NCBI GenBank assembly: GCA_003142295.1
Contig: PLLV01000101.1
Coordinates: forward strand, 9,781-73,780
Source: Syntrophaceae bacterium
GTDB lineage: Bacteria; Desulfobacterota; Syntrophia; Syntrophales; UBA2185
DNA: 64,000 nt
Direction: 5' to 3'
Part shown: in pieces, positions 46,808-62,525 of the stretch
How positions within the stretch are numbered: position 1 is the first letter of the stretch
Layout of the letters: every line of letters begins with the position of its first letter
Program-made: the position numbers and the translations under genes
The notes under the pieces: model-generated
Told to the model about the DNA's origin: nothing
What the model saw: only the letters and a program-made list of their open reading frames with translations
Database searches by the model: none

Positions 46808-48925
46808 ATGTCCAAGAAATTAACCAATGAGAGCCCAAATCAGAAGATATCATGGGCGGACAGAAGATCTTCAGGACGCCAGAAAGTGGATGAAAAGCTG
46901 ATCGAGAGTGAGCAGCTTTTCAGAAGCCTGACGGAGAAATCCTTTGCTGCCGCTTTTATAGTGCAGGATGGAAAATTTCGCTATATTAATACAAGTGCTA
47001 TTGCTTATGCCGATTATACAGCAGAAGAGCTCGTAGGCAAGGATTCCGGCATTATAGTTCATCCCGACGATAAGGAAATGGTAAAGAAGAAAGCCCGCGA
47101 GATGCTCCAGGGCATAGACTATGCGCCATATGAATTCAGAATGGTAACCAAACAGGGCGCAATCAGGTATGTGATTCAGATAGTCTCCCCCATCCAATAC
47201 AACGGCAAGCCGGCAATCCTGGGCAATGCCATAGATGTCACCGAGCGCAAGCGGGTAGAGGAGGCTTTGAGAGAATCGGAGAGACGGTTAGCGGATATTA
47301 TTGATTTTCTGCCGGATGCTACACTGGCAATTAACCGGAAGGGGAACGTGATTGCATGGAATCGCGCCATAGAGGAAATGACGGGTGTCAAGGCCGCCGA
47401 CATATTAGGGAAAGGTGACTACGAATATGCGTTGCCCTTTTACGGCATACGAAGGCCCATCTTGGTTGATCTGGTACTGAAGCCGGACAAAAAAATTGAG
47501 CGGAGTTATTATTCTGTTCTCGAAAAGAATAAAGATCTCCTTATTGTAGAGACATGGGTGCCATTCTTGAAGTGGAAAAAGGCCTTCCTCTGGGCAAAGG
47601 CCAGTCCCCTTTATGATAGCAAAGGCGATATTGTGGGCGCCATTGAGTCGATCAGGGACATTACGGAGCGCAAAGAGGCGGAAAAAATGCTTCAGGAATC
47701 AGAGGAAAAATACCGATCCCTCGCATCCAGTATCGATTTGATGTATCTCGTTGACAAGGATTGCAGGTATCTGTTCATGAATGAAGGACTCCTGTCGAGG
47801 CTTGGCATTTCCTTAGGTGATGTGGAAGGAAAATCATATGATGACTTCCATTCTGAAGAGGATGCGAGAGAATTCACGGAAATCATCAGCCGTATTTTCA
47901 AAATAGGCCAGGCAGTCCAGCATGAACACAAGAGTGAAAGAGATGATAAATACTTTCTCAGGTCATTGAGTCCCGTTAAGGATTCTGAAGGGAGGACAAT
48001 AGCCGTAACGGTAGTTTCGAAAGACATTACCAAGCGCAAGCTGGCGGAAGAGGCGCTAAGGGAATCAGAGAGGCGGTTGTCGGATATTATTGATTTCTTG
48101 CCGGACGCGACACTTGCGATTAACCGGAAGGGGAACGTGATTGCATGGAATCGCGCCATAGAGGAAATGACAGGAGTTAAAGCTGCCGACATGGTGGGAA
48201 AAGGTGACTTTGAGTATGCCTTGCCGTTTTATGGTGTACGAAGGCCTATTTTGATTGATCTCGTTTTGAAACCGGACAAGAAAATTGAGCGGAGTTATTA
48301 TTCTGTTTTCAAGAAGGAGGAGGACCACCTGATCGTGGAGACGTGGGTTCCTGCTTTGAAAGATAAAAGAGCCTTCCTCTGGGCAAAGGCCAGTCCCCTT
48401 TACGATAGCAAAGGGCGCATAGTGGGTGCCATCGAATCGCTCCGGGATATTACGGAGCGCAAGCAGGCAGAGGAAATGCTGGAGAAAAGGGAGGTTGAGC
48501 TTGAGGCAAAGACTAACGAGCTTGAAGACCTCAACGCGGCCTTAAGGGTCCTGCTTAAGCAGAGAGAAGAGGATAGAAATGAGCTCGAACAAAAGGTGCT
48601 GTCAAACGTGAAGCTGCTCATACTGCCATATATTGATAAATTGAAAAGCCGCGTAGATCTGAAGGGCTCATCCTATGTCAACGTCCTCGAATCAAATCTA
48701 AAAGAAATCGTATCACCCTTTGCGCAAAAATTGTCAGTCAAGTACTTGAATCTTACCAACAGAGAGGTGCAGATCGCCAATCTTATAAAGGAGGAAAAAA
48801 CAACTAAAGAAATAGCGGCACTTCTTAACGTCTCTGAAAGTTCAGTCAATGTATACCGTTATCACATCCGGCGCAAACTCAGCTTAACCAAGAAGCATAA
48901 TCTTCGCTCCTACTTATCTTCATAA
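46808..48925 (+). CDS. Multi-PAS LuxR-family transcriptional regulator
   Basis: The 705-aa product has four PAS-like modules, each ending in D(I/V)TERK, then a coiled coil, then a C-terminal LuxR HTH (LTNREVQIANLIKEEKTTKEIAALLNVSESSVNVYRYHIRRKL). Confidence 0.88.
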   Translation: MSKKLTNESPNQKISWADRRSSGRQKVDEKLIESEQLFRSLTEKSFAAAFIVQDGKFRYINTSAIAYADYTAEELVGKDSGIIVHPDDKEMVKKKAREMLQGIDYAPYEFRMVTKQGAIRYVIQIVSPIQYNGKPAILGNAIDVTERKRVEEALRESERRLADIIDFLPDATLAINRKGNVIAWNRAIEEMTGVKAADILGKGDYEYALPFYGIRRPILVDLVLKPDKKIERSYYSVLEKNKDLLIVETWVPFLKWKKAFLWAKASPLYDSKGDIVGAIESIRDITERKEAEKMLQESEEKYRSLASSIDLMYLVDKDCRYLFMNEGLLSRLGISLGDVEGKSYDDFHSEEDAREFTEIISRIFKIGQAVQHEHKSERDDKYFLRSLSPVKDSEGRTIAVTVVSKDITKRKLAEEALRESERRLSDIIDFLPDATLAINRKGNVIAWNRAIEEMTGVKAADMVGKGDFEYALPFYGVRRPILIDLVLKPDKKIERSYYSVFKKEEDHLIVETWVPALKDKRAFLWAKASPLYDSKGRIVGAIESLRDITERKQAEEMLEKREVELEAKTNELEDLNAALRVLLKQREEDRNELEQKVLSNVKLLILPYIDKLKSRVDLKGSSYVNVLESNLKEIVSPFAQKLSVKYLNLTNREVQIANLIKEEKTTKEIAALLNVSESSVNVYRYHIRRKLSLTKKHNLRSYLSS
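47258..47675 (+). repeat. Intragenic PAS-module repeat, copy 1
   Basis: The protein segment is EEALRESERRLADIIDFLPDATLAINRKGNVIAWNRAIEEMTGVKAAD...AIESIRDITERK. It matches copy 2 at an offset of 789 nt. Confidence 0.9.
48047..48464 (+). repeat. Intragenic PAS-module repeat, copy 2
   Basis: The protein segment is EEALRESERRLSDIIDFLPDATLAINRKGNVIAWNRAIEEMTGVKAAD...AIESLRDITERK. A 53-nt block (48119 onward) is identical to 47330 onward. Confidence 0.9.
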
Positions 48926-48945
48926 TTTCTGAAAAGTTAAATATT

Positions 48946-48976
48946 TTTTAATATTAGTTATAAATCTTTTAATATT
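48946..48976 (+). promoter_or_regulatory. Two TTTTAATATT boxes 21 nt apart (candidate operator)
   Basis: ttttaatatt occurs at 48946..48955 and 48967..48976. The core AATATT is self-complementary. The second box abuts the candidate -35. Confidence 0.3.
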
Positions 48977-49003
48977 GTCTTTTCATATTTATACCTATAT
49001 AAT
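48975..49003 (+). promoter_or_regulatory. Candidate sigma70 promoter upstream of the membrane-protein/CoA-transferase operon
   Basis: TTGTCT (48975..48980), a 17-nt spacer, then TATAAT (48998..49003). A second perfect TATAAT at 49191..49196 has a weak -35. Confidence 0.4.
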
Positions 49004-49353
49004 ACTTTAAATGTGATCGCAGCATAGAGCTCCCAAATTATTCCTTTTCAGTTTTAGATACTTATATCCTTAACAGATACCAATAGTTAGTACAGTATAC
49101 CCCATGACCTGCATCAAAAGGCTCCATAGAATGAAAGTGGCGGAATAATGGCGAAGTGGTTCATTCTTCAATTTATAGTAGCATATTTTATATAATGCGA
49201 GGATTTAGGCAGTCGTCACGGGGAAATTATAAACGTGTTATTGATTATGAAGGGAGGAGGTGATCATCAAGTTAGATTAGAGTTATGATCCGGTAAACGA
49301 AGTCTGGAAGAATTTAACAACGTCTATTGGAACTAAAAAAGGAGGATTACATT

Positions 49354-50646
49354 ATGGCAGGAGAATTACGGCCTCGTTGGGGTCAACCCATGACAGGCAT
49401 TGTTTCTACCATAGCATTTTTTGTGATCGCTTGGATTACCTGGTATCTTTTCAGCGATCCCCGTGGTCCCATGGGCTTATTTCCTTATCCGTTTGTTCTT
49501 ATACTCGCCTGGATGATTCTGGTGGGTTTATGGCAGCACATGTTTTTGGGTGACTGGCCGTTTCAGAAATTGTCGCCACCGGCCAGAGGGGTTGTCATGA
49601 CCATTGTGAACCTGGTCCTTGTGTGGTTTGTTATCGAAGTCATTTTTGATCGGGTTTTAGGTCTGGGGTTCAATTTCTTAAGTCAAACCAATCTTAATGC
49701 ACTGGCAGCGTCGGGGGCGACGGTGTTGCCCGAAGCGTGCGGGAAAACGCTGACTTTCGAAGCGATGAAAGGCGCACACTTTGCGCAGAGTGCAGGCGTA
49801 GGATTTGTGTTGATTGGATTCTTCGCGTATCCCTTTGTGACAATCCTTTTTGCTAAATGGCCTATCCGTCCCAGTAACCTGGAGCAGCCCGCTGCCGGTT
49901 TAGCCGAGATCGGTTGGTGCAGTCTGCTTACCCTTTTCTTCTACGTCGTTCTTATCGTTCCCTTCTTTGGTTTGGTCTTCGAGAAGATGTTCGGTAACGC
50001 CTATGGAATGAACACTCCCTGGTGGGGCGGTATCGGCGGCACTCCCCACTTGCACTGGGTATTCGGCTGGTGGGAGTGGGCGGTCATCGTCCTCTTCATG
50101 ACGCCCAACGTCTGGCGTATGAAACCCTGGTCGCTCATCAAGCTTCCTCAGCCCTGGAAAGGTCTTATCTCTTTCTGCGGCGTCATAGTCCTTGCCTATA
50201 TCTGTGCCTTGATCTGTTTAAAACTGATTCCGCTATGGGCGAACATGGATGATATCACTCACCATCTGCCCGCCGGGGATAAGGGGAATCCCATTCGCTT
50301 CCTGTGGTACCACGCGGCGGAGATTGCCGGTTTTACCCTGATTCCATTCCTCCAGTGGCATCACTACTTTGACGATATGTGCCCGCAGAAGAATGTAGAT
50401 TCCTGGGGAGGTTTCTGGTTTAGAACAGTAGGTGTGCTTATTTTAACAGCGGTTCTGTACGTATGTTTCTACCACCTCAACTTCGGTTACTGGGGACTGG
50501 GCAATCATCATATGCACGGTGACCTTGCGGAAAGATTTATCCACGGTGAATCCCTCATCTGGAATTTCTGGTGGATCATCCCACTTCTCTGGAACGAGTG
50601 GTTCTTCCACAAGTGGCCTTTCTACGTTCATGATGAGCATCATTAA
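49354..50646 (+). CDS. Hypothetical polytopic membrane protein, Trp/His-rich (430 aa)
   Basis: The ATG at 49354 lies 8 nt after AAGGAGG. I estimate about 10-12 hydrophobic segments. Motifs include HLHWVFGWWEW, LQWHHYFDD, NHHMHGD and the C-terminal VHDEHH. I recognised no family. Confidence 0.75.
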   Translation: MAGELRPRWGQPMTGIVSTIAFFVIAWITWYLFSDPRGPMGLFPYPFVLILAWMILVGLWQHMFLGDWPFQKLSPPARGVVMTIVNLVLVWFVIEVIFDRVLGLGFNFLSQTNLNALAASGATVLPEACGKTLTFEAMKGAHFAQSAGVGFVLIGFFAYPFVTILFAKWPIRPSNLEQPAAGLAEIGWCSLLTLFFYVVLIVPFFGLVFEKMFGNAYGMNTPWWGGIGGTPHLHWVFGWWEWAVIVLFMTPNVWRMKPWSLIKLPQPWKGLISFCGVIVLAYICALICLKLIPLWANMDDITHHLPAGDKGNPIRFLWYHAAEIAGFTLIPFLQWHHYFDDMCPQKNVDSWGGFWFRTVGVLILTAVLYVCFYHLNFGYWGLGNHHMHGDLAERFIHGESLIWNFWWIIPLLWNEWFFHKWPFYVHDEHH

Positions 50647-50660
50647 TTAAGTCTAGTCGA

Positions 50661-50688
50661 GGTAAAGGGGCTGGTCAGCCCCTTTACC
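50661..50688 (+). other. Perfect 12-bp stem-loop after the membrane-protein gene (no U-tract)
   Basis: ggtaaaggggct (50661..50672), loop ggtc, agcccctttacc (50677..50688). Confidence 0.6.
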
Positions 50689-50785
50689 TGGCATTTAAGC
50701 ATATGCTGCCCATGCACACGGATTTTGTTTCCGTGAGCGAGGAGTGGTATGCGAATTGGCAATGTTTTTTTGAAAGGAGGAAGTT

Positions 50786-51841
50786 ATGGCGAGAATTCGC
50801 GGGAAAGCTAAGAAAGCTGAAATTATGACGCTTGAAGAAGCGGTCAAGAAATACATGCATAACGGGATCCAGATTGCCTTCAGCGGGTTTACGGGGTTCA
50901 ACAGAAACCCGATGGCCTTTGCCTGGGAAGTGGTAAGACAAAAATTCAAAGACCTGCATGTTATCGACAGGCATGGCAGTTGCTGCACCTGGCTCCTTAA
51001 CACCGTCGGCGCTATTAAGATTTATGAAACCGACTGGATGGGCTGGGGCGAGATGGCGGGAAAACTCGACATCAACATGGAAAGGATTTACAAGGCGGGG
51101 AAGATAATCCTTGAAGACTACTCTCACGGCGCAATGGCCATGAGATTCCTTGCCGGGGCAATTGGGGCGCCGTTCATTCCCTATTATGCTCCTCTGGGAT
51201 CGGACCTCTACAATCCGGACTATGATGCATTGGGAAAAGCTGGCCTGAGGAATGGTAAAAATCCGAGAATTGCAAAGAAGAAGTTTATCCAGATTGAGGA
51301 ACCCTTCTATGGTGATGGAGAGGTCGTCCTGCTTCCCGCAGCTAGGCCCGAACTGGCAGTCATTCACGTATCTAAGGTAGGCGACAAGGGGACGGCGAGG
51401 TGGCGAGGTATCGGGACGATCGATAAAGAAATGGCCTTTGCATGCGACAAGGTCGTAATCACGGCCGAAGAGGTAGTTCCCGAAGGAGAGATGAGGAAGG
51501 ATCCGGAAGCCAACCAGATTCCCTTCTTTACTGTTGACGCCATTGTGGAAGTGCCCTGGGGAGCCTTCCCGAGCGGTGTCCCTTTCTATTATGACTATGA
51601 CGTGCCCTTTATGAGGGAGATGGATAAAGCATCAAGAAACGTGGAGGATTTGAAAAAATGGATCGATGAATGGGTTTTTGGCCCGAAGAGCTGGGAAGAA
51701 TTTATTGTTAAGCTTGGTGCAAAGAAATTGTTGTCTCTCAGAGCGGATAGCACCACTGGATACAGCACCAAGATGATGCGAGGAAAGAACCCGGCACCGA
51801 GGATGAAGATGCCTTTATCCGTCGCTCGAAGTGGCTATTAA
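50786..51841 (+). CDS. Family I CoA-transferase subunit A (glutaconate-CoA-transferase GctA-like)
   Basis: The 351-aa product begins with the typical MTLEEAVKKYMHNGIQIAFSGF and shows a GctA-like pattern. An AAAGGAGGAAG RBS precedes it. Confidence 0.8.
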   Translation: MARIRGKAKKAEIMTLEEAVKKYMHNGIQIAFSGFTGFNRNPMAFAWEVVRQKFKDLHVIDRHGSCCTWLLNTVGAIKIYETDWMGWGEMAGKLDINMERIYKAGKIILEDYSHGAMAMRFLAGAIGAPFIPYYAPLGSDLYNPDYDALGKAGLRNGKNPRIAKKKFIQIEEPFYGDGEVVLLPAARPELAVIHVSKVGDKGTARWRGIGTIDKEMAFACDKVVITAEEVVPEGEMRKDPEANQIPFFTVDAIVEVPWGAFPSGVPFYYDYDVPFMREMDKASRNVEDLKKWIDEWVFGPKSWEEFIVKLGAKKLLSLRADSTTGYSTKMMRGKNPAPRMKMPLSVARSGY

Positions 51842-51860
51842 AGGAAAGGGGGGAATGAAA

Positions 51861-52757
51861 ATGGCTAAAACAATGGAACAATTGATGGAGTTGATCGATA
51901 AGATACCCAGTGAGAAAGCCAAGGCGGGTGAATTTATCCTGCCGGAATTGATGGCTATCGCTATTGCTCACGAGGTCCTGAACGATGATGTCGTCTTTGC
52001 GGGTACGGGGCTTCCCATGGTGGGGATTATGGCTGCCAACATGCTGAATGCACCGAATGCGGTGTTAATATACGAATCGGGGATATGCGACGGAAAGACC
52101 ATGCATGTGCCCATGTCCGTGAGCGACCAGAGGGCGGCCAATTTGTGTTCCACCCTGGGCGGACTGGTGGATACCTTTGGTTATTATTTGCAGCAGGGTT
52201 TTGTGACCTTGGGGTTTCTGGGAGGTGCCGCTATCGATAAATACGGCGGCGTAAATGTTACATCCATCGGTGATTACTATGCCCCAGTGCACCGCTTCAC
52301 AGGTTCCGGGGGCAATTCCGACATAGGAACCATGTCGAAAAGAGTTGCATACATCATCCTTCAGGAAAAGAGGAGATTCCTGGAGAGAAATGATTATACC
52401 ACAACGCCCGGCTGGTGGTGCTGGGATTTCAAGAAACGGGAGTGGAAACCGAAGAAGGAGGTCTGGAAAGGGACGCCCTATGCGGATTGCGGCCCCTGTG
52501 GTGTGGTAACGAATATGGGCGTATACCGGTTTGATGACAAGGGAATCATCTACCTGGAAACCTGCCACCCCGGTGTCACCGTGGAGAAGATCAAAGAGAA
52601 TTGCGGATTTGACCTGAATGTTTCAAAAGTTAAAGGTGAAACTCCAATCCCGACTTACAAGGAGCTCTTTGTCCTCAGGGAGTTCGTTGATCCGGAATTG
52701 ATCTTCCTGCCGGCGAAAACGGAATATCCCGCCGCGATCAAGTCAATTATTGGTTAG
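51861..52757 (+). CDS. Family I CoA-transferase subunit B (GctB-like)
   Basis: Contains VVFAGTGLPM and VLIYESGICDG (candidate catalytic Glu in an ESG context). I chose the ATG at 51861, 8 nt after AAGGGGGG. The track ORF starts at 51831. Confidence 0.8.
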   Translation: MAKTMEQLMELIDKIPSEKAKAGEFILPELMAIAIAHEVLNDDVVFAGTGLPMVGIMAANMLNAPNAVLIYESGICDGKTMHVPMSVSDQRAANLCSTLGGLVDTFGYYLQQGFVTLGFLGGAAIDKYGGVNVTSIGDYYAPVHRFTGSGGNSDIGTMSKRVAYIILQEKRRFLERNDYTTTPGWWCWDFKKREWKPKKEVWKGTPYADCGPCGVVTNMGVYRFDDKGIIYLETCHPGVTVEKIKENCGFDLNVSKVKGETPIPTYKELFVLREFVDPELIFLPAKTEYPAAIKSIIG

Positions 52758-52833
52758 AAAGTAACTCTAATATGGATCCTGTCAACCTGCCGTTCAGGCA
52801 GGCTGACAGGATAATTAGAAAGGAGGAAGGGAT

Positions 52834-54000
52834 CTGAATTTAGATCTGACAGAAGAACAAACAATCATTCAGGACACAGCTCGGCGCTTCGCAAGGACAG
52901 AACTGGAACCGGCAGCGGCGCGGCTCGACCAAGTAGGCGATCGTGACACCTTCTTAAAGAATTTGAAGAAACTCGCCAGCCTTGGCTTGATGGGCATAAA
53001 CGTTGATAGTCGCTATGGAGGGTCTGATGCCGGTGTGGTGGCCTTTAGTCTTGCCATCACAGAGATTGCAAGGGCCTGTGCCTCGACGGCAGTAACCATG
53101 TCTGTCAACAATCTGGTCTGTGAGGTGATTCAGGCAATTGGCTCTGAGGAACAGAAAATGGCCTATATCCCGAAGATCTGTTCCGGTGAATACCCTGCCG
53201 GCGGGTTTGGTTTGACTGAGACCGTGGCCGGTTCCGATGCTGCCGCGCTCCAGACATCTGCCGTTCTGGACGGCGATCAATGGGGACTCAACGGTTCAAA
53301 GATGTTTATTACCAGTGCTGAATATGCGGGCGTCTTTGTCGTTTGGGCGGTGACCGACAAGAAGGCGAAGAAGGGCAGCGGTATCAGCACATTTCTGGTC
53401 GAGAACGGAATTCGCGGTCTAACGATCGGAAGAGAAGAACACAAGATGGGGCAGCATGCTTCTTCAACAAATGAACTGATCTTTGAGGACTGCCGGATAC
53501 CAAAATCAGCCCTTATGGGGAAAATGAATGGCGGCTTCAAGACAGCTACGGGAGAACTCGCAGGTGGACGCATAGGCATCGGCTCTCTCGCTTTAGGTGT
53601 CGGACTTGCTGCCATGGATTATGCCACACGATATGCAATGGAGAGAAAGCAGTTCGATCAGTCCATAACAAATTTCCAGGCTATCCAGTGGATGATTGCC
53701 GAATCCTATACGGAGCTGGAGGCGGCAAGGCTTCTCCTCATGAATGCAGCGTTCAAGAAAGAACAGGGCAAACCCTTTGCAAGAGCAGCATCTATGGCGA
53801 AGTATTTTGCGACCGAAGCCGCCGATAGGGCCTGCTTCAATGCCGTGCAGATGCTCGGTGGATACGGATATACCAATGAATTCCCTGTCGAACGATATGC
53901 GAGAGACGTCCGGATTACGTTGATCTATGAAGGGACCAACCAGATCCAACGGATGATAATTGCCAGAGACATTCTTAACAGCCTCAAAGAATCGACATAG
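52834..54000 (+). CDS. Acyl-CoA dehydrogenase (short/branched-chain type) with apparent CTG start
   Basis: The track ORF (from TTG 52963) lacks the conserved N-terminus. The in-frame upstream sequence reads (L)NLDLTEEQTIIQDTARRFARTELEPAAARLD, which aligns with MNFGLTDDQRDVRDMVKKFAEQEIKPIAAELD of the second ACAD. An in-frame stop lies at 52816..52818. The only start-like codon after the AGGAGGAAGG RBS is CTG at 52834. Confidence 0.8.
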   Translation: MNLDLTEEQTIIQDTARRFARTELEPAAARLDQVGDRDTFLKNLKKLASLGLMGINVDSRYGGSDAGVVAFSLAITEIARACASTAVTMSVNNLVCEVIQAIGSEEQKMAYIPKICSGEYPAGGFGLTETVAGSDAAALQTSAVLDGDQWGLNGSKMFITSAEYAGVFVVWAVTDKKAKKGSGISTFLVENGIRGLTIGREEHKMGQHASSTNELIFEDCRIPKSALMGKMNGGFKTATGELAGGRIGIGSLALGVGLAAMDYATRYAMERKQFDQSITNFQAIQWMIAESYTELEAARLLLMNAAFKKEQGKPFARAASMAKYFATEAADRACFNAVQMLGGYGYTNEFPVERYARDVRITLIYEGTNQIQRMIIARDILNSLKEST

Positions 54001-54296: not shown

Positions 54297-55652
54297 ATGG
54301 AAAAAGTGCCGCAGAAGCTGGAAAAGACCAGGGCTGAGATGTATGCTCATGCGCCAATCTCAAAGTTCGGTGAGAGAAAACCTGATTTCTCAACCATGGG
54401 ACGGAAAATAAAAAATCAGTACAGGAATGTTAGAGAAGTTGTCGTCGTGGAAGCATGCCGGACGCCGTACGGCAGATTCGGGGGGGCACTTAAAGATTTT
54501 ACCGCTCCCGAACTTGGAGCTTTGGCGATAAAGGAAGTACTCAGGCGGACGAATGGAAAGGTCAAACCATCCGATGTGGATTACGTTTTCATGGGGCATG
54601 TAGTTCCTGCAGGATGTGGACAGATACCCAGCAGGCAAGCAACTATCCTGGCCGGTCTCCCAGAATCCATTCCCTCCATTACGATCAATAAGGTATGTTC
54701 TTCAGGTATTAAGCCGATCGATCTTGCAGTCCAGATGATTCAACTGGGAAGAGCCGAGATTTGCATAGCGGGCGGCCAGGAAAGCATGAGCAATGGCCCG
54801 TATGCTCTGCCTGAGATGAGGTGGGGGGCAAGGATGGGACTCCCGAACCGGCCAGTCCTTGATTTAGTTGTTTACGATGGGCTCTGGGACGCATTTTATA
54901 ACCGGCACATGGCCGTTCACGGTTCTGAGGTTGGCGATGAATTCGGAGTTACACGGCAGGATCAGGATGAATGGGCTCTTCGCTCCCAGCTGGCAGCAGT
55001 TGAGGCAATGAAGACGGGAAAACTGGACGACGAGATATTTCCCGTCGAGGTGAAGCAGGGGAAAAAGGTCGTCATCTTCGACAAAGACGAAGGACCAAGG
55101 CCGGAGACGACTATAGACGGGTTAGCCAAATTGCCGCCGGTCTTCAATCATAAAAGCCCGGTTACCGGAGGTCCCGGAAGTGTTACGGCCGGTAATGCAC
55201 CGGGTGTCAATGACGGAGGAGATGTCTGTCTGGTAATGAGCAGGGAAATGGCCGACAAACTGGGCATAAAACCCCTGTTTACCATACTCGATTACGCCGA
55301 GGTTTCCCAGCCACCGAAGGATATTGCGACGGTGCCGGGACTCGCAATCAAGAAACTTCTCGAGCAGAATAACATGACTCTCGATAAAATAGATCTGCTG
55401 GAAATCAATGAAGCCTTTGCTGCCGTTGTCTTGGTTAGCGCCCGCTATATCTTAGGCATGAGCAAGGAAGATATGTATAAGAGGGTCAATGTGAATGGAA
55501 GCGCCATCGCATATGGTCACCCTATAGGTGCGACGGGCGCGAGGATTGTCATGACTCTTGCCTATGAACTGCGGCGAAGAGGCGGCGGGATCGGGATATG
55601 CGGAATCTGCTCGGGCCATGCTCAGGGTGACGCGATGCTGATCAAAGTGTAA
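54297..55652 (+). CDS. Thiolase (acetyl-CoA C-acyltransferase family) with N-terminal extension
   Basis: Contains VVVVEACRTPYGRFGG, NKVCSSGIKP (nucleophile Cys), GNAPGVNDGG, NGSAIAYGHPIGATGARI and GICGICSGHAQG. The start is uncertain: TTG 54204, ATG 54297 after GGGGG, or ATG 54396. Confidence 0.85.
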   Translation: MEKVPQKLEKTRAEMYAHAPISKFGERKPDFSTMGRKIKNQYRNVREVVVVEACRTPYGRFGGALKDFTAPELGALAIKEVLRRTNGKVKPSDVDYVFMGHVVPAGCGQIPSRQATILAGLPESIPSITINKVCSSGIKPIDLAVQMIQLGRAEICIAGGQESMSNGPYALPEMRWGARMGLPNRPVLDLVVYDGLWDAFYNRHMAVHGSEVGDEFGVTRQDQDEWALRSQLAAVEAMKTGKLDDEIFPVEVKQGKKVVIFDKDEGPRPETTIDGLAKLPPVFNHKSPVTGGPGSVTAGNAPGVNDGGDVCLVMSREMADKLGIKPLFTILDYAEVSQPPKDIATVPGLAIKKLLEQNNMTLDKIDLLEINEAFAAVVLVSARYILGMSKEDMYKRVNVNGSAIAYGHPIGATGARIVMTLAYELRRRGGGIGICGICSGHAQGDAMLIKV

Positions 55653-55800
55653 ACGATTGACTTTCCCTGGGGCTCAAGTTCTTTTTTCCGACTATATAGT
55701 CTCGCTTATCTCCGATGAAATGGTACGGGAAAAGACCTTTCACTTGCCTTAATGGGAAGCGGATGTGCTGAGAATAAAAAATGACGGGAGGAAGGTAGTG

Positions 55801-56658
55801 ATGGCAGTTAAGACATTCGGTGTTATCGGAGCCGGCCAGATGGGCAACGGCATAGCTCAGGTTGCTGCAAGCACAGGGGGACTGAATGTAATCATGAATG
55901 ACATTGCAGACCAGTTTGTCGACAAGGGGTACGATACGATTTCAAAAAACCTGGACCGCCTTGTTGCCAAGGAAAAGCTGACGGCTGACCAGAAAAAAGA
56001 GATCATTGGCCGCATCAAGAAGAGCACGAAGCTGGAAGACATGAAGGATGCCGATTTTGTTGTGGAGGCAGCGATAGAACGAGAAGATCTCAAACTTGGG
56101 ATATTCAGAAAACTTGATGAAGTCTGCAAGCCCGGGGTAATCCTTGCCACGAATACTTCCTCTATTCCCATTACGAGGATAGCCGGTGCAACAAAGAGGC
56201 CTGCCTTAGTCATCGGGATGCATTTTATGAACCCCGTTCCCGTGATGAGACTCGTCGAGATCATCAGGGGTTTGGCTACCTCTCAGGAGACGTACAACAC
56301 GACGGAAGCGCTGTCCAAGCAGTTTGGGAAGGTTCCCGTGGAATGCAATGACTTTCCGGGATTTATAGCGAACAGGATCCTTATGCCCATGATCAATGAG
56401 GCCGTTTATACCCTGATGGAAGGAGTGGGCACGCCAAAGGCCATTGATGACATTATGGTATTGGGCATGAATCACCCCATGGGTCCTCTGGCGTTGGCTG
56501 ACCTGATTGGTCTGGACACATGCTGGGCTATAATGGACGTTCTTTACAAGGGATTTGGCGATTCCAAGTACCGTCCCTGTCCGCTCCTTAAGAAATACGT
56601 GGATGCGGGTTACATGGGGAGAAAGACGGGAAAAGGATTCTACGATTACAGCAAGTAA
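55801..56658 (+). CDS. hbd: 3-hydroxyacyl-CoA (3-hydroxybutyryl-CoA) dehydrogenase
   Basis: Contains [16 protein letters not shown] (Rossmann fold), HFMNPVPVM and [11 protein letters not shown]. The ATG at 55801 follows GGGAGGAAGG. Confidence 0.9.
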
Positions 56659-56855
56659 TGCTTGCATTCGAAAAATGTTCTTCCGTGACGAGAATCTTTT
56701 TTCGACAATTGTAAAGCCCGCTTCGGCAGGGAGCGCAGCCCGAGATCATGGCTTCAAGCCTCGTGATAAGATGTCCAAAGGTTGACGAAAAAAATAATAT
56801 GCACTCGGAAAGCTTTTCCGAACCATTAAAAGAAAGTGAAAAGGGGGTACATCGG

Positions 56856-57638
56856 ATGGAATTCAAGAACCTCTTGTTTGCAGTTGAGGATGGTGTCGCT
56901 ACAATAACGTTTAACAGGCCCAAGGCCTTAAATGCGATGAATACGGAAACGATGAAGGAGCTTATGGATGCGGCTACCCTCTGTAGGAATGATGACGCCA
57001 TAAAGGTTCTCATCCTCACCGGGTCAGGAGAAAAGGCCTTTGTAGCAGGCGCTGACATATCAGAGATGCAGAACCTGCGGCCTAAAGAGGCCCTTGCCTT
57101 TATGGAGCTGGGTAATGAAACGCTGCGATTGATTGAAACGCTGCCCAAGCCCTCCATCGCTGCCGTGAACGGTTTCGCTTTGGGCGGCGGCACGGAAATT
57201 TCCATGGCCTGTGATATGAGATTTGCATCGGAAACGGCCCGTTTCGGCCAGCCGGAAATACTGATCGGATTGATACCGGGATGGGGAGGAACTCAGAGGA
57301 TTTCGCGTTTAATAGGAATGGGAAGGGCCAAGGAACTCATCATGTGTGGCGAGCAGGTCGATGCGAAAAGGGCCTACGACGTCGGTCTTGTAAACAGGAT
57401 ATTTCCCCTCGACCAGCTTCTCCCGGAGACGAAAAAGTTTGCCAGGAAATTGGCCGGTATGCCTGGATTCGCCCTGAAGATGGCCAAGCATTCGATCAAT
57501 TATGGTTATGATCTTGCGCTTGATAACGGGATCAGGCTGGAAATGGAATGCTGCGCCCAGTGCTTCAGCACGGATGATCAGAAAGAAGGAATGAAGGCCT
57601 TCCTCGAAAAGAGAAAGCCTGTTTACACGGGGAGTTGA
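56856..57638 (+). CDS. crt: Enoyl-CoA hydratase (crotonase family)
   Basis: Contains ATITFNRPKALNAM, AFVAGADISEM and AAVNGFALGGGTEISMACD. The ATG at 56856 follows AAGGGGG. The track ORF starts earlier at 56748. Confidence 0.9.
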   Translation: MEFKNLLFAVEDGVATITFNRPKALNAMNTETMKELMDAATLCRNDDAIKVLILTGSGEKAFVAGADISEMQNLRPKEALAFMELGNETLRLIETLPKPSIAAVNGFALGGGTEISMACDMRFASETARFGQPEILIGLIPGWGGTQRISRLIGMGRAKELIMCGEQVDAKRAYDVGLVNRIFPLDQLLPETKKFARKLAGMPGFALKMAKHSINYGYDLALDNGIRLEMECCAQCFSTDDQKEGMKAFLEKRKPVYTGS

Positions 57639-57693
57639 TTCGCCGTTTTATTCGATGCTTTAATAACACATTATTGTAAGGGGGTTATGAGCC

Positions 57694-58842
57694 ATGAATT
57701 TTGGTTTAACAGATGATCAGCGGGACGTGAGAGATATGGTGAAGAAGTTTGCAGAGCAGGAGATTAAACCCATAGCAGCAGAGCTGGACAAGACCCACAG
57801 GCATCCGGAAGAGATCTGCCGTAAACTCGGAGAAATGGGTATTATGGGCATAGCCGTGCCTCAGGAATATGGTGGGGCGGGCATGGACGTGGTGACGTAC
57901 GTTCTCTCCCTGATTGAGATTTCCAAAGCCTGTGCAAGCTGCGGTGTCATTGTATCGGTCAACAATTCCCTTTACGGGTACCCGATATTAGCCTTCGGGA
58001 CGGAAGAGCAGAAGAAAAAGTATCTACCGCCTGTGGCGAGCGGGCAGGTTGAGGGGTGCTATGGATTGACAGAGCCAAGCGCCGGTTCGGATGCCGCCGC
58101 ACTGAAGTGTCGGGCCGTATTGAAAGGGGACAAATATATTGTCAACGGGACCAAAATCTTCATAACGAACGGCAATGTGGCGCATTACTGCGTTTTAGCT
58201 GCCACGACCGATCCCGCATTAGGATACAAGGGGGTCATCAATCTCATCCTGGATATGAAGAACACCCCGGGTTTTAAAGTGGGCAAGATCGAGGAGAAAA
58301 TGGGAATCCTTGCTTCCGGAACGGCTGAGCTCGTCTTTGAGGATGCTGAGATACCGGCGGCAAACCTCCTGGGTAAACCGGGACAGGGTTTTAAGCAGAT
58401 GATGATGGGGCTTGACGCGGGGAGAATCGGTATTGGTTCCCAGGCCTGCGGTATCGGCCGGGCGGCCATGGAAGACGCCCTCGCTTATGCAAAAGAAAGA
58501 GTGCAGTTCGGTAAGCCGATTGCAACATTCCAGGCGATCCAGTTCAAGCTCGCCGACATGGCAATGGAGCTCGATGCAGCGGAATTGCTGCTCCTTCGTG
58601 CCGCCTGGATGGAAGACAATCATCTCGAATTTGAGAAAGAATCGGCCATGGCAAAGTGTTATGCGTCCGATGTGGCAATGAGGGCTGCCGTTGAAGGCGT
58701 GCAGATATTCGGTGGTTACGGCTACACAAAAGAGTATCCGGCCGAAAGACACATGCGGGATGCGAAGATCTGTCAGATCTATGAAGGGACGAACGAGATT
58801 CAGAGAGTGGTTATCTCGAGAAAACTTTTGGGCATGAGATAA
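57694..58842 (+). CDS. Acyl-CoA dehydrogenase (butyryl-CoA dehydrogenase-like)
   Basis: The 382-aa product contains MNFGLTDDQ..., YGLTEPSAGSDAA, FGGYGYTKEYPAERHMRDAKICQIYEGTNEIQ. Confidence 0.92.
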   Translation: MNFGLTDDQRDVRDMVKKFAEQEIKPIAAELDKTHRHPEEICRKLGEMGIMGIAVPQEYGGAGMDVVTYVLSLIEISKACASCGVIVSVNNSLYGYPILAFGTEEQKKKYLPPVASGQVEGCYGLTEPSAGSDAAALKCRAVLKGDKYIVNGTKIFITNGNVAHYCVLAATTDPALGYKGVINLILDMKNTPGFKVGKIEEKMGILASGTAELVFEDAEIPAANLLGKPGQGFKQMMMGLDAGRIGIGSQACGIGRAAMEDALAYAKERVQFGKPIATFQAIQFKLADMAMELDAAELLLLRAAWMEDNHLEFEKESAMAKCYASDVAMRAAVEGVQIFGGYGYTKEYPAERHMRDAKICQIYEGTNEIQRVVISRKLLGMR

Positions 58843-58893
58843 AGCTGTCAATACGACACGGTTCGTCTCATAGAAGCAGAAAAATAGAGATTT

Positions 58894-58916
58894 CTGAAGA
58901 GACTTTCGTCTTTCAG
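58894..58916. terminator. Weak bulged hairpin between convergent genes
   Basis: ctgaagagac-tttc-gtctttcag forms 9 bp with one bulge. There is no clear U-tract on either strand. Confidence 0.25.
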
Positions 58917-58934
58917 TAGATGCATGGATAAAAA

Positions 58935-59234
58935 TTATTTTTCGATTTTGAAGGGTGAGAACTCATACTCTTTTTCTTCAACTGCGAAAGCTACCCTGTC
59001 TTCTTCGTTTACTGTGAGGTTACCCTCTATAATGCGGCGGCAACCAAAATCGAAAAAGTTTACTTGGTGCGTAGGCATATCCTTTTCATCCATTTGTTTG
59101 TAGTATTGCTCTTTTTCAGCGGGTGTTATTTCCCTGATGACGAGTTTTTGGCATCGTTCGCGGGCTTCCCATGTACCTTGGCGTATGGTGACCCGGTAAT
59201 TGCCGTGAAACTTTATGGGCATTTTGATTTTCAT
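58935..59234 (-). CDS. Hypothetical 99-aa protein, opposite strand within the acyl-CoA gene block
   Basis: The ATG lies 6 nt after GGAGG. The sequence is MKIKMPIKFHGNYRVTIRQGTWEARERCQKLVIREITPAEKEQYY... I recognised no family. Confidence 0.6.
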   Translation of the reverse strand: MKIKMPIKFHGNYRVTIRQGTWEARERCQKLVIREITPAEKEQYYKQMDEKDMPTHQVNFFDFGCRRIIEGNLTVNEEDRVAFAVEEKEYEFSPFKIEK

Positions 59235-59342
59235 CTAGTACCTCCGGATTTTGTGCTATGTTCTATCGGAAGATCGCATAGCATAACTTTGGATAGTTGT
59301 CCATTTATTGAATGTAGAGGGGGCGGGTAGTCTTTTTTCTAT

Positions 59343-59371
59343 TTGACAAACCCGCATGGTGGAGAGAAAAT
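59343..59371 (+). promoter_or_regulatory. Candidate sigma70 promoter for the mutase genes
   Basis: TTGACA (59343..59348), a 17-nt spacer, then GAAAAT (59366..59371). Confidence 0.3.
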
Positions 59372-59442
59372 CCGCGGATTCGATAGTCAAGTACTGATTG
59401 ATAATAGCAGTTATATCAGATTTATTGGAAGGAGGCGGTAAT

Positions 59443-61125
59443 ATGTATTTTGCAAAAGAGGTGCTGAGTCAATCCAGCGAGCTCAAGAAAAAATGGGAGG
59501 ATGAGGTCCGGAGGGTGGTCAGTAAAGTTCCTGACCAGAGGGAACGATGGTCTACCGTTTCAGATCTCGAAATCAAGAGGCTCTATGGTCCTGATGACAT
59601 AAAGGATATGGACTTTACCCGTGATATTGGATACCCCGGGCAGTTTCCATTTTTACGGGGTAATCAGGCGACGGGTTATCGCGGACGATACTGGACGTTC
59701 AGGATGTTTTCCGGCATGGGAAGCGCTGAAGACACCAACAAACGGTGGCACATGCTTCTCAAAGAGGGACAGACCGGCCTCAGTACGGCCTTTGATTTTC
59801 CAACTCTTATGGGCTACGATTCGGACTCGCCCAAGGCCCGTGGTGAGTGTGGGAAGTGCGGGGTCGCCATAGATACCCTCGAGGATTTGCTGCAATTAGT
59901 GGACGGTATTCCCATGGATGAGGTTACCACGTCCATGACAATCAATCCGCCGGCTACTGTGCTCTGGGCGATGTACTGTGCAGCGGCACAGATCAAGGGT
60001 ATACCGCTTACCAAGATAGGCGGCACGATACAGAATGACATGCTGAAAGAATTCATCGCACAGAAGACGTTCATGTGTCCGCCGGAGCCGTCAGTCAGAC
60101 TCATAAGTGACACCGTTGAATTCGGGACGAAGTATGTTCCCAGATGGAACACCATCAGCATCAGCGGGTACCATATCAGGGAAGCCGGTTCCACGGCGGT
60201 TCAGGAGCTTGCTTTTACCCTTAGAGACGGCATGGAGTATGTGGAGGACGTCGTTAACCGGAAAGGATTAAATGTCGATGAATTTGCTCCGCGGTTTTCA
60301 TTTTTCTTTAATTCCCATGTAGATTTCTTCGAGGAGATCTGTAAGATGCGTGCTGCCCGGAGAATCTGGGCAAAAGTAATGCGGGACCGCTATAAGGCCA
60401 AGGACCCGAGATCGTGGTGGATGCGCTTCCATACACAAACCGCCGGGTGTTCACTGACGGCTCAGCAGCCGTACAACAACGTCGTGCGGACGGCCACGCA
60501 AGCCCTCGCCGCTGTCCTTGGCGGCACTCAGTCCTTGCACACCAATTCCCTTGACGAGGTGATGTGCCTGCCGTCGGATTCCGCCGTGCAGATTGCGCTT
60601 CGAACCCAGCAGATCATCGCGGAAGAGACCGGCGTTGCCAACACGGTTGATCCGTTGGCAGGTTCGTACTTCGTCGAAGCTTTAACCAACGAAATGGAAG
60701 AGCAGACTTGGGACTACATCAATAAGATTGACGAGATGGGCGGTATGGTTGCCGCAATAGATAAGGGGTTCCCGCAGTTGGAGATAGCTGATGCGGCCTA
60801 CAAGTTCCAGAGGCAGATAGACTCCTGTGAAAAGATTATGGTCGGCGTCAACAAATATGTTACCGATGAACAGATACCCATCCCTCTTTTAGAGATTGAT
60901 GATAAAGTTGAAGAGGATCAGATCGCGCGGTTGAATGCAGTCCGCAGAAAGCGGGACAATAAGGCAGTGAAAAAGAGTCTCGAAGACATTAAGAATGCGT
61001 GCAAGAAGGGCGAAAATGTCATGCCCCACTGTATTGAGGCCGTTAAGAATCTGGCCAGTATCCAGGAGGTGTGCGACGTCTATCGTGAGCTCTATGGCGA
61101 GTACCGTGATCCGGGACTCTATTAG
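59443..61125 (+). CDS. B12-dependent acyl-CoA mutase large (substrate-binding) subunit, isobutyryl-CoA-mutase-like
   Basis: The 560-aa product starts at the ATG after GGAGG. It shows an ICM-like backbone (GKCGVAIDT, SISGYHIREAGSTA, FFFNSHVDFFEEI, FHTQTAG). Phe89 and Gln207 occupy the positions of MCM Tyr89/Arg207. There is no fused B12 domain. Confidence 0.88.
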   Translation: MYFAKEVLSQSSELKKKWEDEVRRVVSKVPDQRERWSTVSDLEIKRLYGPDDIKDMDFTRDIGYPGQFPFLRGNQATGYRGRYWTFRMFSGMGSAEDTNKRWHMLLKEGQTGLSTAFDFPTLMGYDSDSPKARGECGKCGVAIDTLEDLLQLVDGIPMDEVTTSMTINPPATVLWAMYCAAAQIKGIPLTKIGGTIQNDMLKEFIAQKTFMCPPEPSVRLISDTVEFGTKYVPRWNTISISGYHIREAGSTAVQELAFTLRDGMEYVEDVVNRKGLNVDEFAPRFSFFFNSHVDFFEEICKMRAARRIWAKVMRDRYKAKDPRSWWMRFHTQTAGCSLTAQQPYNNVVRTATQALAAVLGGTQSLHTNSLDEVMCLPSDSAVQIALRTQQIIAEETGVANTVDPLAGSYFVEALTNEMEEQTWDYINKIDEMGGMVAAIDKGFPQLEIADAAYKFQRQIDSCEKIMVGVNKYVTDEQIPIPLLEIDDKVEEDQIARLNAVRRKRDNKAVKKSLEDIKNACKKGENVMPHCIEAVKNLASIQEVCDVYRELYGEYRDPGLY

Positions 61126-61149
61126 GACTGATTGAAGGAGGAGATGGTA

Positions 61150-61560
61150 ATGGCTAAGAGAAAGATTCGTGTTATGGTAGCAAAACCAGGTCTTGACGGT
61201 CATGATCGGGGCGCCAGGATTTTAGCCAGGTGTTTCCGGGACGCTGGTTTTGAAGTAATATATACGGGGTGTCATCAGACACCGGCGATGATTGCAGCGT
61301 CGGCGATTCAGGAAGATGTGGATGTCGTAGGCCTAAGCTGTCTATCGGGAGCGCACAGGTATTTATTTCCCCAGGTAGTTAATCTATTGAGGGAAAAAGG
61401 TGCAGGTGATATCTCCGTGATCGGCGGGGGAATCATCCCTGAACAGGATTTTCAGAAACTCTATGACGCAGGCATCAAGGCGATTTTCGTGCCGGGAACT
61501 ACCCTGGATACGATCGTGGCGTGGGTTAACAAAAATATAAAACCTGTGGAAAGAACATAA
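61150..61560 (+). CDS. Acyl-CoA mutase small subunit (cobalamin-binding domain)
   Basis: Contains RVMVAKPGLDGHDRGA (DxHxxG base-off/His-on motif) and GLSCLSG...VIGGG. The start is ATG 61144 or 61150, after GAAGGAGGAG. Confidence 0.9.
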   Translation: MAKRKIRVMVAKPGLDGHDRGARILARCFRDAGFEVIYTGCHQTPAMIAASAIQEDVDVVGLSCLSGAHRYLFPQVVNLLREKGAGDISVIGGGIIPEQDFQKLYDAGIKAIFVPGTTLDTIVAWVNKNIKPVERT

Positions 61561-62525
61561 TGGAGAGAGGAAAGATGATTAAGGCGGGTGACGTTCGGAC
61601 TGCCTCCCGCCTTATAAGAGACATAGAAGATAGTATCCCCGAAGCAAAACTGACTATAAAACATATTTTCCCATATACGGGCAAGGCCCAGGTCGTTGGG
61701 ATTACCGGGTCTCCTGGAGCAGGGAAGAGCACTATTGTTGACGGTCTCATTGAGACAAGCCGTAAGAAGGAAAAAACGGTAGGGGTTCTCGCCGTTGATC
61801 CGACAAGTCCCTTTACGGGAGGAGCAACGCTCGGTGATAGGATCCGTATGCAGCGCCATTCCGAGGATATAGGCGTCTTCATACGGAGCCTCGCCACGCG
61901 CGGTTCCTTGGGCGGGCTCTCAAAGGCAGTTGGCGATGCCATCCATGTTATGGATGCAATGGGGAAAGATGTGATATTTGTAGAAACCGTAGGTACGGGT
62001 CAACAGGAGGTGGAGATTATCCACTATGCCCATACGGTAGTCGTTGTCCTTGTGCCTGGTATGGGAGATGAAATCCAGGCAATCAAGGCAGGAATCATGG
62101 AGATTGCAGACGTATTCGTCGTCAACAAGGCGGATCGTGACGGAGCAGCGAAACTCCAGCGGGAATTGATGACCATGATTGAAATGTCACCGATTCCTCC
62201 CGGGGGTTGGCGGCCGCCTGTCGTTACAATCAGAAATTCCTTTAAGCCGGAAGAGTTTGACCAGGACATTCAAACATTATCTTCCAAGGTTCACGAACAC
62301 TATGAATATCTAATAAGCAGTGATCTTATCGGTGACAGGCAGCGGCGCAAGAGGCTGCATGAGCTGAATGAGGCCCTGCGATCCAGTATCCTCGAACCTG
62401 TGTTAGGGATGCTCGTCAAAACTGGTGAACTCGACCGTATGGTCGAAAAAATACTGAAAAAGGAATCGGATCCTTCTACTCTGGCCGAAGAAATAGCCAG
62501 GAAATATTTACAGGGGTGTTTTTAA
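61560..62525 (+). CDS. meaB: MeaB/ArgK-type G3E GTPase (mutase chaperone)
   Basis: Contains ITGSPGAGKSTI (P-loop), VETVGTGQ and VVNKADR. Its start overlaps the small-subunit stop (TAATG). Confidence 0.9.
   Translation: MERGKMIKAGDVRTASRLIRDIEDSIPEAKLTIKHIFPYTGKAQVVGITGSPGAGKSTIVDGLIETSRKKEKTVGVLAVDPTSPFTGGATLGDRIRMQRHSEDIGVFIRSLATRGSLGGLSKAVGDAIHVMDAMGKDVIFVETVGTGQQEVEIIHYAHTVVVVLVPGMGDEIQAIKAGIMEIADVFVVNKADRDGAAKLQRELMTMIEMSPIPPGGWRPPVVTIRNSFKPEEFDQDIQTLSSKVHEHYEYLISSDLIGDRQRRKRLHELNEALRSSILEPVLGMLVKTGELDRMVEKILKKESDPSTLAEEIARKYLQGCF

Follow-up and report, generated by a model that had tools for sequence, protein, structure and literature searches.

A putative isobutyrate catabolic island in a Syntrophales genome, centered on a split acyl-CoA mutase with an isobutyryl-CoA mutase-type pocket

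A 64,000-nucleotide stretch of contig PLLV01000101.1 from a Syntrophales bacterium (here called the window) carries a block of ∼16 kb, at positions 46808 to 62525, that raises a twofold question: On which acyl-CoA does its B12-dependent carbon-skeleton mutase act, and do the CoA-transferase, beta-oxidation, membrane protein, and regulator genes beside it serve the same pathway? An earlier reading made from the letters alone (the sequence-only reading) described the block as twelve same-strand genes forming one self-contained acyl-CoA pathway for a substrate that it called unknown. We consider the block to be, probably, an island of genes for the catabolism of isobutyrate, a branched C4 acid that valine fermentation releases; it would also provide reversible butyrate/isobutyrate isomerization. 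All twelve plus-strand open reading frames (ORFs) claimed earlier are in the ORF list at the coordinates given, and Pfam and NCBIfam scans confirmed the family proposed for each. The description as one self-contained unit has to be given up: the block holds 13 genes, 12 on the plus strand and 1 on the minus strand (58935-59234), this antisense gene cuts off the mutase trio, and beyond the closest relatives only that trio is kept.

The substrate question turns on the three mutase genes at the 3′ end of the block, which are as follows.

59443-61125, plus strand: large (substrate) subunit of an acyl-CoA mutase, mutL (PF01642, 720.7 bits; TIGR00641, 753.6 bits)
61132-61560, plus strand: B12-binding small subunit, mutS (TIGR00640, 168.7 bits; motifs DGHDRG ... 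SCL ... GG)
61560-62525, plus strand: MeaB-type G-protein chaperone, meaB (TIGR00750, 313.6 bits against a cutoff of 240.75; GSPGAGKS P-loop and NKAD)

Pocket residues are numbered here as in the methylmalonyl-CoA mutase (MCM) of P. shermanii. In the alignment of MutL to that enzyme, Tyr89 is replaced by Phe and Arg207 by Gln (pocket motifs RMF-SG and IAQ-KT), and the earlier claim that the pocket is not that of MCM therefore stands. The Phe89/Gln207 pair, which we take to be diagnostic of isobutyryl-CoA mutase (ICM) and its fused form IcmF as opposed to MCM, presumably corresponds to Phe80/Gln198 of IcmA and Phe598/Gln742 of IcmF. Thr115 and Ala116 are also present in MutL, with Ala at the position of the hydroxyl-binding Asp of HcmA. 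A direct point of reference comes from one of the loci of relatives compared with the window (given names of the style L001 to L107): in L106, a fused 1,080-amino-acid protein passes the NCBIfam IcmF equivalog model (1744.7 bits; cutoff, 1500) and shares with MutL the residues Phe, Gln, Thr115, and Ala116 at the corresponding sites. The Phe/Gln pair is unvarying in 75 of 75 members of the MutL clade. Elsewhere the pocket reads Ile/Asp/Gln in HcmA (4R3U; M. petroleiphilum and X. autotrophicus), Leu/Asn in Xaut_5043, and Tyr/Arg both in an Ilyobacter enzyme within a methylmalonyl-CoA decarboxylase cluster and in the paralogues that adjoin the Phe/Gln gene in L040, L068, and L075. Because the pair is invariant across 75 members while these three neighboring paralogues, at 52 to 56% identity, have Tyr/Arg, the difference is apparently functional and not drift. 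With an invariant pair that we take to be of the ICM/IcmF type, calling the substrate unknown was overly cautious.

Several other assignments of the mutase were tried and set aside. For carboxylated substrates (alkylsuccinyl-CoA, ethylmalonyl-CoA, and methylmalonyl-CoA), both Arg207 and Tyr89 are absent; MutL shares the fold, the cofactor handling, and the catalytic Tyr243/His244 pair with MCM (P. shermanii 1REQ, human 2XIJ, and the split MCMs of anaerobes), but it lacks the carboxylate-binding Tyr89/Arg207 pair and scores 632 bits with the MCM model NF006944, below its cutoff of 876. HCM or RCM activity would need Ile89 together with Asp (HCM) or Val (RCM) at 116/117, and MutL has Phe and Ala. 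The best-scoring solved structure is nevertheless HcmAB (PDB entry 4R3U; 544 bits, 46% identity), which shares Gln207, the split subunits, and a MeaB-like gene with the window enzyme; HcmA differs in Ile89 and in Asp116, which handles the hydroxyl group, and the HCM clusters of M. petroleiphilum and the X. autotrophicus plasmid carry an acyl-CoA ligase rather than a CoA-transferase and beta-oxidation genes. With ICM (IcmA/IcmB of Streptomyces cinnamonensis; fused IcmF, PDB entry 4XC6), the window trio shares the MM_CoA_mutase barrel, Phe/Gln, Thr115/Ala116, a DxHxxG B12 domain, and a MeaB-type G-protein partner. The fused architecture of IcmF is not found in the window, however: the enzyme is split over three genes, scores 332 bits with NF045497 (cutoff, 1500), and is 33% identical to the IcmF-equivalog sequence.

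In a neighbor-joining tree (no bootstrap, IcmA absent), the split Phe/Gln enzymes form one group adjoining the split Tyr/Arg MCMs of anaerobes, with HcmA outside. This group comprises the window clade, a 62%-identical subclade from Syntrophobacteraceae and Desulfacinum, and a Deinococcus plasmid gene. Public annotation names the relatives of MutL "methylmalonyl-CoA mutase family protein" throughout, and only generic names appear among the 120 homologues listed; for the split Phe/Gln clade, this label should be read as denoting a predicted ICM-type enzyme. A second split mutase (52 to 56% identical) lies a few kilobases upstream of the Phe/Gln mutase in L038 (6707-8400), L040 (6184-7857), L068 (1066-2907), and L075 (22-1506). 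In the three of these in which the pocket was read (L040, L068, and L075), it is the Tyr89/Arg207 pocket of MCM, and both specificities therefore appear to be kept side by side. The split mutase Xaut_5043 (L084, 15159-16838; X. autotrophicus Py2 plasmid pXAUT01) has an unusual Leu89/Asn207/His208/Tyr211 pocket, and its neighbors are genes for MeaB, a B12 subunit, a TetR regulator, and two acyl-CoA ligases. The HCM-type genes Xaut_5018-5021 form a separate cluster on the same plasmid.

If the mutase acts on a noncarboxylated C4 acyl-CoA, the genes upstream would have to activate the acid and degrade the straight-chain product. They encode the following proteins.

50786-51841, plus strand: CoA-transferase alpha subunit, ctA, GctA-like, family I (PF01144; 1POI_A, 178 bits)
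51855-52757, plus strand: CoA-transferase beta subunit, ctB, GctB-like (PF01144; 1POI_B, 162 bits)
52834-54000, plus strand: acyl-CoA dehydrogenase 1, acd1, like butyryl-CoA dehydrogenase (Bcd), with a CTG start (Pfam acyl-CoA dehydrogenase domains; 4L1F, 331 bits)
54297-55652, plus strand: thiolase of the acetyl-CoA C-acetyltransferase type, thl (Pfam; TIGR01930, 408 bits; cutoff, 240)
55801-56658, plus strand: 3-hydroxybutyryl-CoA dehydrogenase, hbd (NCBIfam NF004474, 453.8 bits; cutoff, 408)
56856-57638, plus strand: short-chain enoyl-CoA hydratase (crotonase), crt (PF00378, 240 bits; NF004475, 333.6 bits, below the cutoff of 394)
57694-58842, plus strand: acyl-CoA dehydrogenase 2, acd2, butyryl-CoA dehydrogenase type (4L1F, 428 bits; 5OL2, 398 bits)

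The glutaconate CoA-transferase of Acidaminococcus fermentans (GctA/GctB; PDB entry 1POI) is the sole strong solved relative of both CoA-transferase subunits. The two subunits match it in size, and the catalytic Glu is kept in CtB, where the ESG of YESG aligns with the active-site Glu of GctB. As such, the transferase hints at glutarate fermentation of the kind known from strain WoG13, a candidate that was rejected: both acyl-CoA dehydrogenases score higher as Bcd (4L1F, 428 bits for Acd2 and 331 bits for Acd1) than as glutaryl-CoA dehydrogenase (3MPI, 251 and 222 bits), and there is no decarboxylase. Because neither a glutaconyl-CoA decarboxylase nor a glutaryl-CoA dehydrogenase is found in the context and both dehydrogenases fit Bcd far better, a monocarboxylate appears the more likely substrate of the GctAB-like enzyme. 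Acd1, Acd2, Hbd, and the crotonase are all of the C4 (butyryl/crotonyl/3-hydroxybutyryl) type. The proposal of the sequence-only reading that a mutase for a noncarboxylated acyl-CoA is coupled to a CoA-transferase and a beta-oxidation set is thus supported, with the set being of C4 type.

Two features of these genes are recorded here for their own sake. The thiolase carries an N-terminal extension of ∼47 amino acids. The conserved N terminus of Acd1 is encoded without an ATG, GTG, or TTG: in the window, GGAGG (within 52821-52850) is followed after 8 nucleotides by CTG, and the start is ACG in L001 (about 3390-3420), L003, and L005 (about 3760-3800). The gene looks truncated, yet its N terminus lies in frame, which likely implies a conserved noncanonical start codon. 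For other genes, the starts of the mechanical ORF list were revised to ATG at 49354 (the membrane protein gene, memb), 51855 (ctB), 54297 (thl), 55801 (hbd), 56856 (crt), and 59443 (mutL).

The presence of two dehydrogenases that are 46% identical opens the way to readings with longer acids. In the first, the mutase would act on 2-methylbutyryl-/valeryl-CoA or isovaleryl-/pivalyl-CoA, so that isoleucine- or leucine-derived acids or pivalate would be degraded and the two differing dehydrogenases would serve the branched and the straight intermediates. IcmF has been reported to interconvert isovaleryl- and pivalyl-CoA as well (PMC10481361). The replacement of Met78 by Gly and other clade-specific substitutions might also widen the channel. 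We nevertheless think C5 acids unlikely, as Hbd, the crotonase, and Acd2 score best with C4-specific models and Phe89 is kept in MutL; in IcmF engineering work, higher activity on pivalyl-CoA reportedly required a smaller residue in place of this Phe. The pocket of the relative Xaut_5043 differs, with Leu89/Asn207.

A second reading would account for both dehydrogenases through the C6 dismutation of propionate described for Smithella. Two propionyl-CoA would be condensed by the thiolase and reduced by Hbd, the crotonase, and one acyl-CoA dehydrogenase to 2-methylvaleryl-CoA; the mutase would convert this to hexanoyl-CoA; and the second dehydrogenase, the crotonase, Hbd, and the thiolase would release butyryl-CoA and acetyl-CoA, with the CoA-transferase recycling CoA to propionate. 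The split Phe/Gln mutase of Syntrophales and Smithella would then interconvert 2-methylacyl-CoA and n-acyl-CoA over a wider span of chain lengths than ICM does. We hold this C6 route to be highly improbable. In its favor, the enzyme inventory is exactly sufficient, including the otherwise unexplained second dehydrogenase, the route is redox neutral, and every Smithella locus retrieved has the Phe/Gln trio. The main 13C patterns that de Bok et al. 2001 are said to have obtained also agree with the route by our own atom tracing. Identical-pocket trios occur, however, in Syntrophomonas, Desulfosporosinus, Desulfobotulus, and Desulfohalobiaceae, and we know of no report of propionate dismutation by any of these. 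The Smithella loci, moreover, are without the block, and what they show close by is limited to a crotonase and a hydratase of the MaoC type; Phe89 fits a C4-sized pocket as in IcmF; and IcmF itself stands in for the split mutase in the analogous module of L106. According to a 2021 review, only the methylmalonyl-CoA pathway had been studied at the gene level among the proposed propionate routes (PMC8892533), and our literature searches found no later gene assignment for the Smithella dismutation route.

The same C4 enzymes could also run in reverse. Thiolase, Hbd, crotonase, and Bcd make up the clostridial butyrate-forming set, isomerization is reciprocal in anaerobes, and formation of isobutyrate by an ICM adjoining a CoA-transferase has been proposed for chain-elongating Clostridia (PMC7764203). 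In this case, acetyl-CoA would be condensed and reduced to butyryl-CoA, isomerized, and released by the CoA-transferase as butyrate or isobutyrate, which would give fermentative growth an electron sink, with memb as the exporter. This direction seems to us quite unlikely, given that the host lineage and nearly all relatives are fatty-acid-oxidizing syntrophs or sulfate reducers and that no EtfAB genes for bifurcating reduction adjoin the Bcd-like genes. All of the enzymes are reversible, so that the direction depends on physiology rather than on what the genes encode.

Whether the mutase belongs with the upstream genes at all was approached through the relatives. A scan of species-representative genomes gave 80 loci with a large subunit 75 to 95% identical to MutL. 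The closest (92 to 95%) are from Syntrophales metagenome-assembled genomes (MAGs) from soil, peat, and lake water, in keeping with the earlier suggestion of a syntrophic fatty-acid degrader as host; the others are from Syntrophales, Smithella/Smithellaceae, Syntrophomonas, Desulfosporosinus, Desulfohalobiaceae, and the isolate Desulfobotulus alkaliphilus. The sequence-only reading had called for a comparison of the whole block in related genomes, and the outcome is divided. In very close relatives the full block is conserved, being syntenic from memb to meaB in L001 and L003, from ctA onward in L005, and in part in L002 and L004; in ∼70 other genomes, only mutL-mutS-meaB stays together. One of the partial loci, L004 (JAJRBU010000036.1, 4.1 kb), carries acd2-mutL-mutS at 93% identity in a bin named as a Methanoregulaceae archaeon MAG and is most likely a mis-binned Syntrophales contig.

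Judged by synteny alone, the trio would look like a mobile cassette that came to rest behind a beta-oxidation operon. In its strong form, this view denies any functional unit: the three-gene cassette would sit only by chance, and in one lineage, downstream of an ordinary operon for butyrate beta-oxidation. Full synteny is indeed confined to relatives at no less than 92% mutase identity, the antisense gene and a 600-bp gap part the two halves, and the trio is ∼80% identical across phyla, which suggests horizontal transfer. We judge chance placement to be improbable all the same, since groupings of a mutase with thiolase, Hbd, acyl-CoA dehydrogenase, CoA-transferase, or memb genes have arisen independently from nonorthologous parts. 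Thiolase and Hbd genes precede the mutase trio in L068 and L075, with a memb homologue downstream of it in L075; GctAB-like genes lie 6 kb from the trio in L049; and L106 has the order thiolase, DUF35, Hbd, two CoA_transf_3 genes, a small ORF, memb, CoA_transf_3, acyl-CoA dehydrogenase, IcmF, and acyl-CoA dehydrogenase. PAS-LuxR regulators, too, stand beside the trio in other Syntrophales (L006, L009, L011, L013, and L077). The recurrence of the gene order in L001, L003, and L005, together with the analogous modules elsewhere, is more than chance. Because the functional set recurs even where the transferase, or the mutase itself, is replaced by a nonorthologous one, there is good evidence in gene content that memb, acid activation, acyl-CoA dehydrogenase, thiolase/Hbd, and an ICM-type mutase would work together and that the split enzyme would do what IcmF does.

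Other neighbors of the trio vary among the relatives. A CobA-type adenosyltransferase accompanies it in 46 of the 80 loci and precedes it in those of Syntrophomonas and Desulfosporosinus. In these same two genera, an extra gene for a B12-binding domain (36 to 53% identical to the small subunit) lies directly 3′ of meaB (L024, L025, L034, L045-L047, L049, L058, L062, and L080). In the five Syntrophales loci with a neighboring PAS-LuxR gene (mutase 85 to 86% identical), four partner genes are found within 10 kb upstream of the mutase, identified by eye as an AbfD-like protein (4-hydroxybutyryl-CoA dehydratase family), a C_GCAxxG_C_C protein, a pyridine-nucleotide-disulfide oxidoreductase, and the PAS-LuxR protein, which is shorter than that of the window. 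The AbfD-like set hints at a link to crotonyl/4-hydroxybutyryl-CoA chemistry.

The component of the block without a recognizable relative is the membrane protein.

49354-50646, plus strand: memb, a polytopic membrane protein of 430 amino acids with ∼10 helices, rich in Trp and His, of an undescribed family

The protein (430 to 439 amino acids depending on the start) contains 7% Trp and 4% His. In line with the first description of it as a protein of unknown family, no Pfam or NCBIfam model matches memb or ten of its distant relatives; the JGI label "AAT family amino acid transporter" was likewise discarded, as no model supports it. We retrieved 363 close homologues (67 to 90% identity) from Syntrophales, Syntrophobacterales, Desulfobaccales, Desulfacinum, and Thermodesulforhabdus, and the family is small, with just 105 cluster representatives among 1.84 billion. 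When relatives of 21 to 45% identity were included in the alignment, AlphaFold gave a model with a pLDDT of 86.9 and a pTM of 0.88; with 20 close homologues alone, the pLDDT was 60. A Foldseek search of the model against the PDB returned nothing better than an E value of 0.1 and a TM score of 0.28. In the deep alignment, His320 and Tyr373 are invariant and Arg357 is nearly so.

Ten distinct genomic contexts of memb were read. In L089-91, L095, L097, and L105, the homologue adjoins a split Phe/Gln mutase trio (62% identical) in divergent orientation. In L096, the homologue is followed by two family III CoA-transferases; in L092 and L093, it lies beside AMP-forming ligases; and in L107, the order is PAS-LuxR, memb, a fused family I CoA-transferase, and an acyl-CoA dehydrogenase. 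With L075 and L106 included, the family is found beside both split Phe/Gln and true IcmF enzymes, two unrelated architectures of ICM-type mutase, as well as beside four kinds of acid-activating enzymes. We propose that memb is probably a short-chain carboxylate transporter because its gene comes immediately before that of the acid-activating enzyme, of whatever kind. The contexts of the most distant relatives, on short or archaeal-like contigs, are uninformative. Relatives at 27 to 28% identity in L102 (5876-9302) and L103 (612-3153) stand in tandem with other proteins of ∼400 amino acids that have no Pfam match and are possibly paralogues; there are no mutases nearby.

The remaining features of the block concern its regulation and are as follows.

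46808-48925, plus strand: PAS-LuxR one-component sensor-regulator (four PAS domains and a C-terminal GerE/LuxR helix-turn-helix; Pfam, NCBIfam)
48926-49353, plus strand: AT-rich intergenic region, presumed promoter/operator for the genes from memb to acd2
58935-59234, minus strand: small gene of 99 amino acids, preceded by a GGAGG ribosome-binding site of its own, in the gap of 600 bp that separates acd2 from the mutase
59235-59442, plus strand: upstream region of the mutase trio, presumed to hold a separate promoter
62698-62716, plus strand: terminator-like hairpin 3′ of meaB (pattern match only)

Because the antisense ORF lies between acd2 and the mutase, the block is not one uninterrupted same-strand run, and the trio would therefore need a promoter of its own, presumably in the region upstream of it. 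A homologue of the antisense gene (68% identical) occupies the same position in L001, and members of its cluster occur in 7 loci; the only Pfam match of the protein is a borderline one to DGF-1_5 (25.6 bits), which is probably spurious. For a single operon under the PAS-LuxR protein, then, what was found is an interrupting antisense gene and promoter-like sites before both 49354 (TTGTCT-17-TATAAT, 48975-49003) and 59443 (TTGACA-17-GAAAAT, 59343-59371), from a promoter and terminator pattern scan whose count was no higher than the shuffled expectation. Only one 14-mer, with two mismatches, was common to 48926-49353 and the mutase upstream region in the search for a shared operator, and no Rfam element or B12 riboswitch was found upstream of the mutase. 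The regulator gene itself contains an internal tandem duplication (47233-47532 and 48022-48321; 82% nucleotide identity over 300 nucleotides, with a period of 789 nucleotides), which copies one PAS pair; the protein copies are very alike by eye. The rest of the window is ordinary chromosome, with a dcw cell-division cluster, SelB, Tol-Pal, and signaling proteins.

On these grounds, the isobutyrate pathway may be laid out in five steps. The PAS-LuxR protein would sense a signal and turn the genes on, and memb, judging by its neighbors, would import isobutyrate. The GctAB-type CoA-transferase would then form isobutyryl-CoA without ATP, with acetyl-CoA or butyryl-CoA as the putative donor. The split adenosylcobalamin-dependent mutase is predicted to catalyze the 1,2-shift of the thioester carbon that yields n-butyryl-CoA, with MeaB loading and guarding the cofactor. 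Finally, the Bcd-type dehydrogenase, crotonase, Hbd, and thiolase, whose families are established by the model scores, would convert butyryl-CoA to two acetyl-CoA. The mutase trio would be a widely shared, separately transcribed cassette, placed here behind a beta-oxidation operon. There is no cob(I)alamin adenosyltransferase gene in the window, and B12 adenosylation, like electron disposal (Etf and a membrane oxidoreductase), must be encoded elsewhere in the genome.

Several observations weigh against assigning the block to isobutyrate. The MutL clade is ∼46% identical to HcmA and MCM and 33% identical to the IcmF barrel, and the split Phe/Gln clade is known only from sequences; its specific changes near the CoA channel (Tyr75 to Gln, Met78 to Gly, and Gln88 to Met) could alter specificity. 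A single dehydrogenase is enough for the isobutyrate pathway, and the second is unexplained. The antisense gene between them and the absence of a shared operator speak against taking coregulation of the trio and the beta-oxidation genes as given. For memb, the transport role is drawn wholly from the gene neighborhood, and the conserved His and Trp would also fit a cofactor-binding or corrinoid-related protein.

As a pathway, isobutyrate catabolism of this kind is not new. In the accepted model, a CoA-transferase and a B12 mutase together isomerize butyrate and isobutyrate (Matthies and Schink 1992, summarized in PMC7764203). Genome studies have already placed ICM clusters in the isobutyrate degrader Syntrophothermus lipocalidus (Slip_0757-0760), in "Ca. 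Caldisyntrophus" and Syntrophomonas BUT1, and among uncultured Syntrophales (PMC5017805, PMC6687939, PMC7382037). In digesters, expression of a mutase together with beta-oxidation was the basis on which uncultured Syntrophales were credited with isobutyrate degradation (PMC7382037). For syntrophs, catabolism of isobutyrate by way of an ICM is thus already a genome- and transcriptome-based prediction, and the butyrate/isobutyrate reading cannot be offered as novel. The window trio has the same large subunit, small subunit, and MeaB as Slip_0757-0760 and its relatives in Syntrophomonas and "Ca. Caldisyntrophus," from the same ecological guild (PMC5017805, PMC6687939). The order of Slip_0757-0760 (adenosyltransferase, large subunit, small subunit, MeaB) is identical in the Syntrophomonas loci (79 to 82% identity) and in those of Desulfosporosinus (PMC5017805), and this agreement speaks for the isobutyrate reading. 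The window differs in having no adjacent adenosyltransferase, the trio being joined instead to a regulator, memb, a CoA-transferase, and a full beta-oxidation set. This locus adds a transferase of the GctAB type, the memb family, and the compact order in which the genes are arranged.

Isobutyrate and the other branched acids that protein breakdown releases are intermediates that form a bottleneck in methanogenic peat, sediments, and digesters, and it is almost solely by genome inference that we know which organisms and genes remove them. From a peat and soil lineage of Syntrophales, the locus provides a gene set that is compact, complete, and open to testing, and its split Phe/Gln mutase represents a large, highly conserved clade. 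The one component worth follow-up is memb, which belongs to a small family, so far mainly from sulfate-reducer and syntroph lineages, without a detectable relative of known fold. If memb is indeed an (iso)butyrate carrier, it would define a new transporter family and be a useful marker gene.

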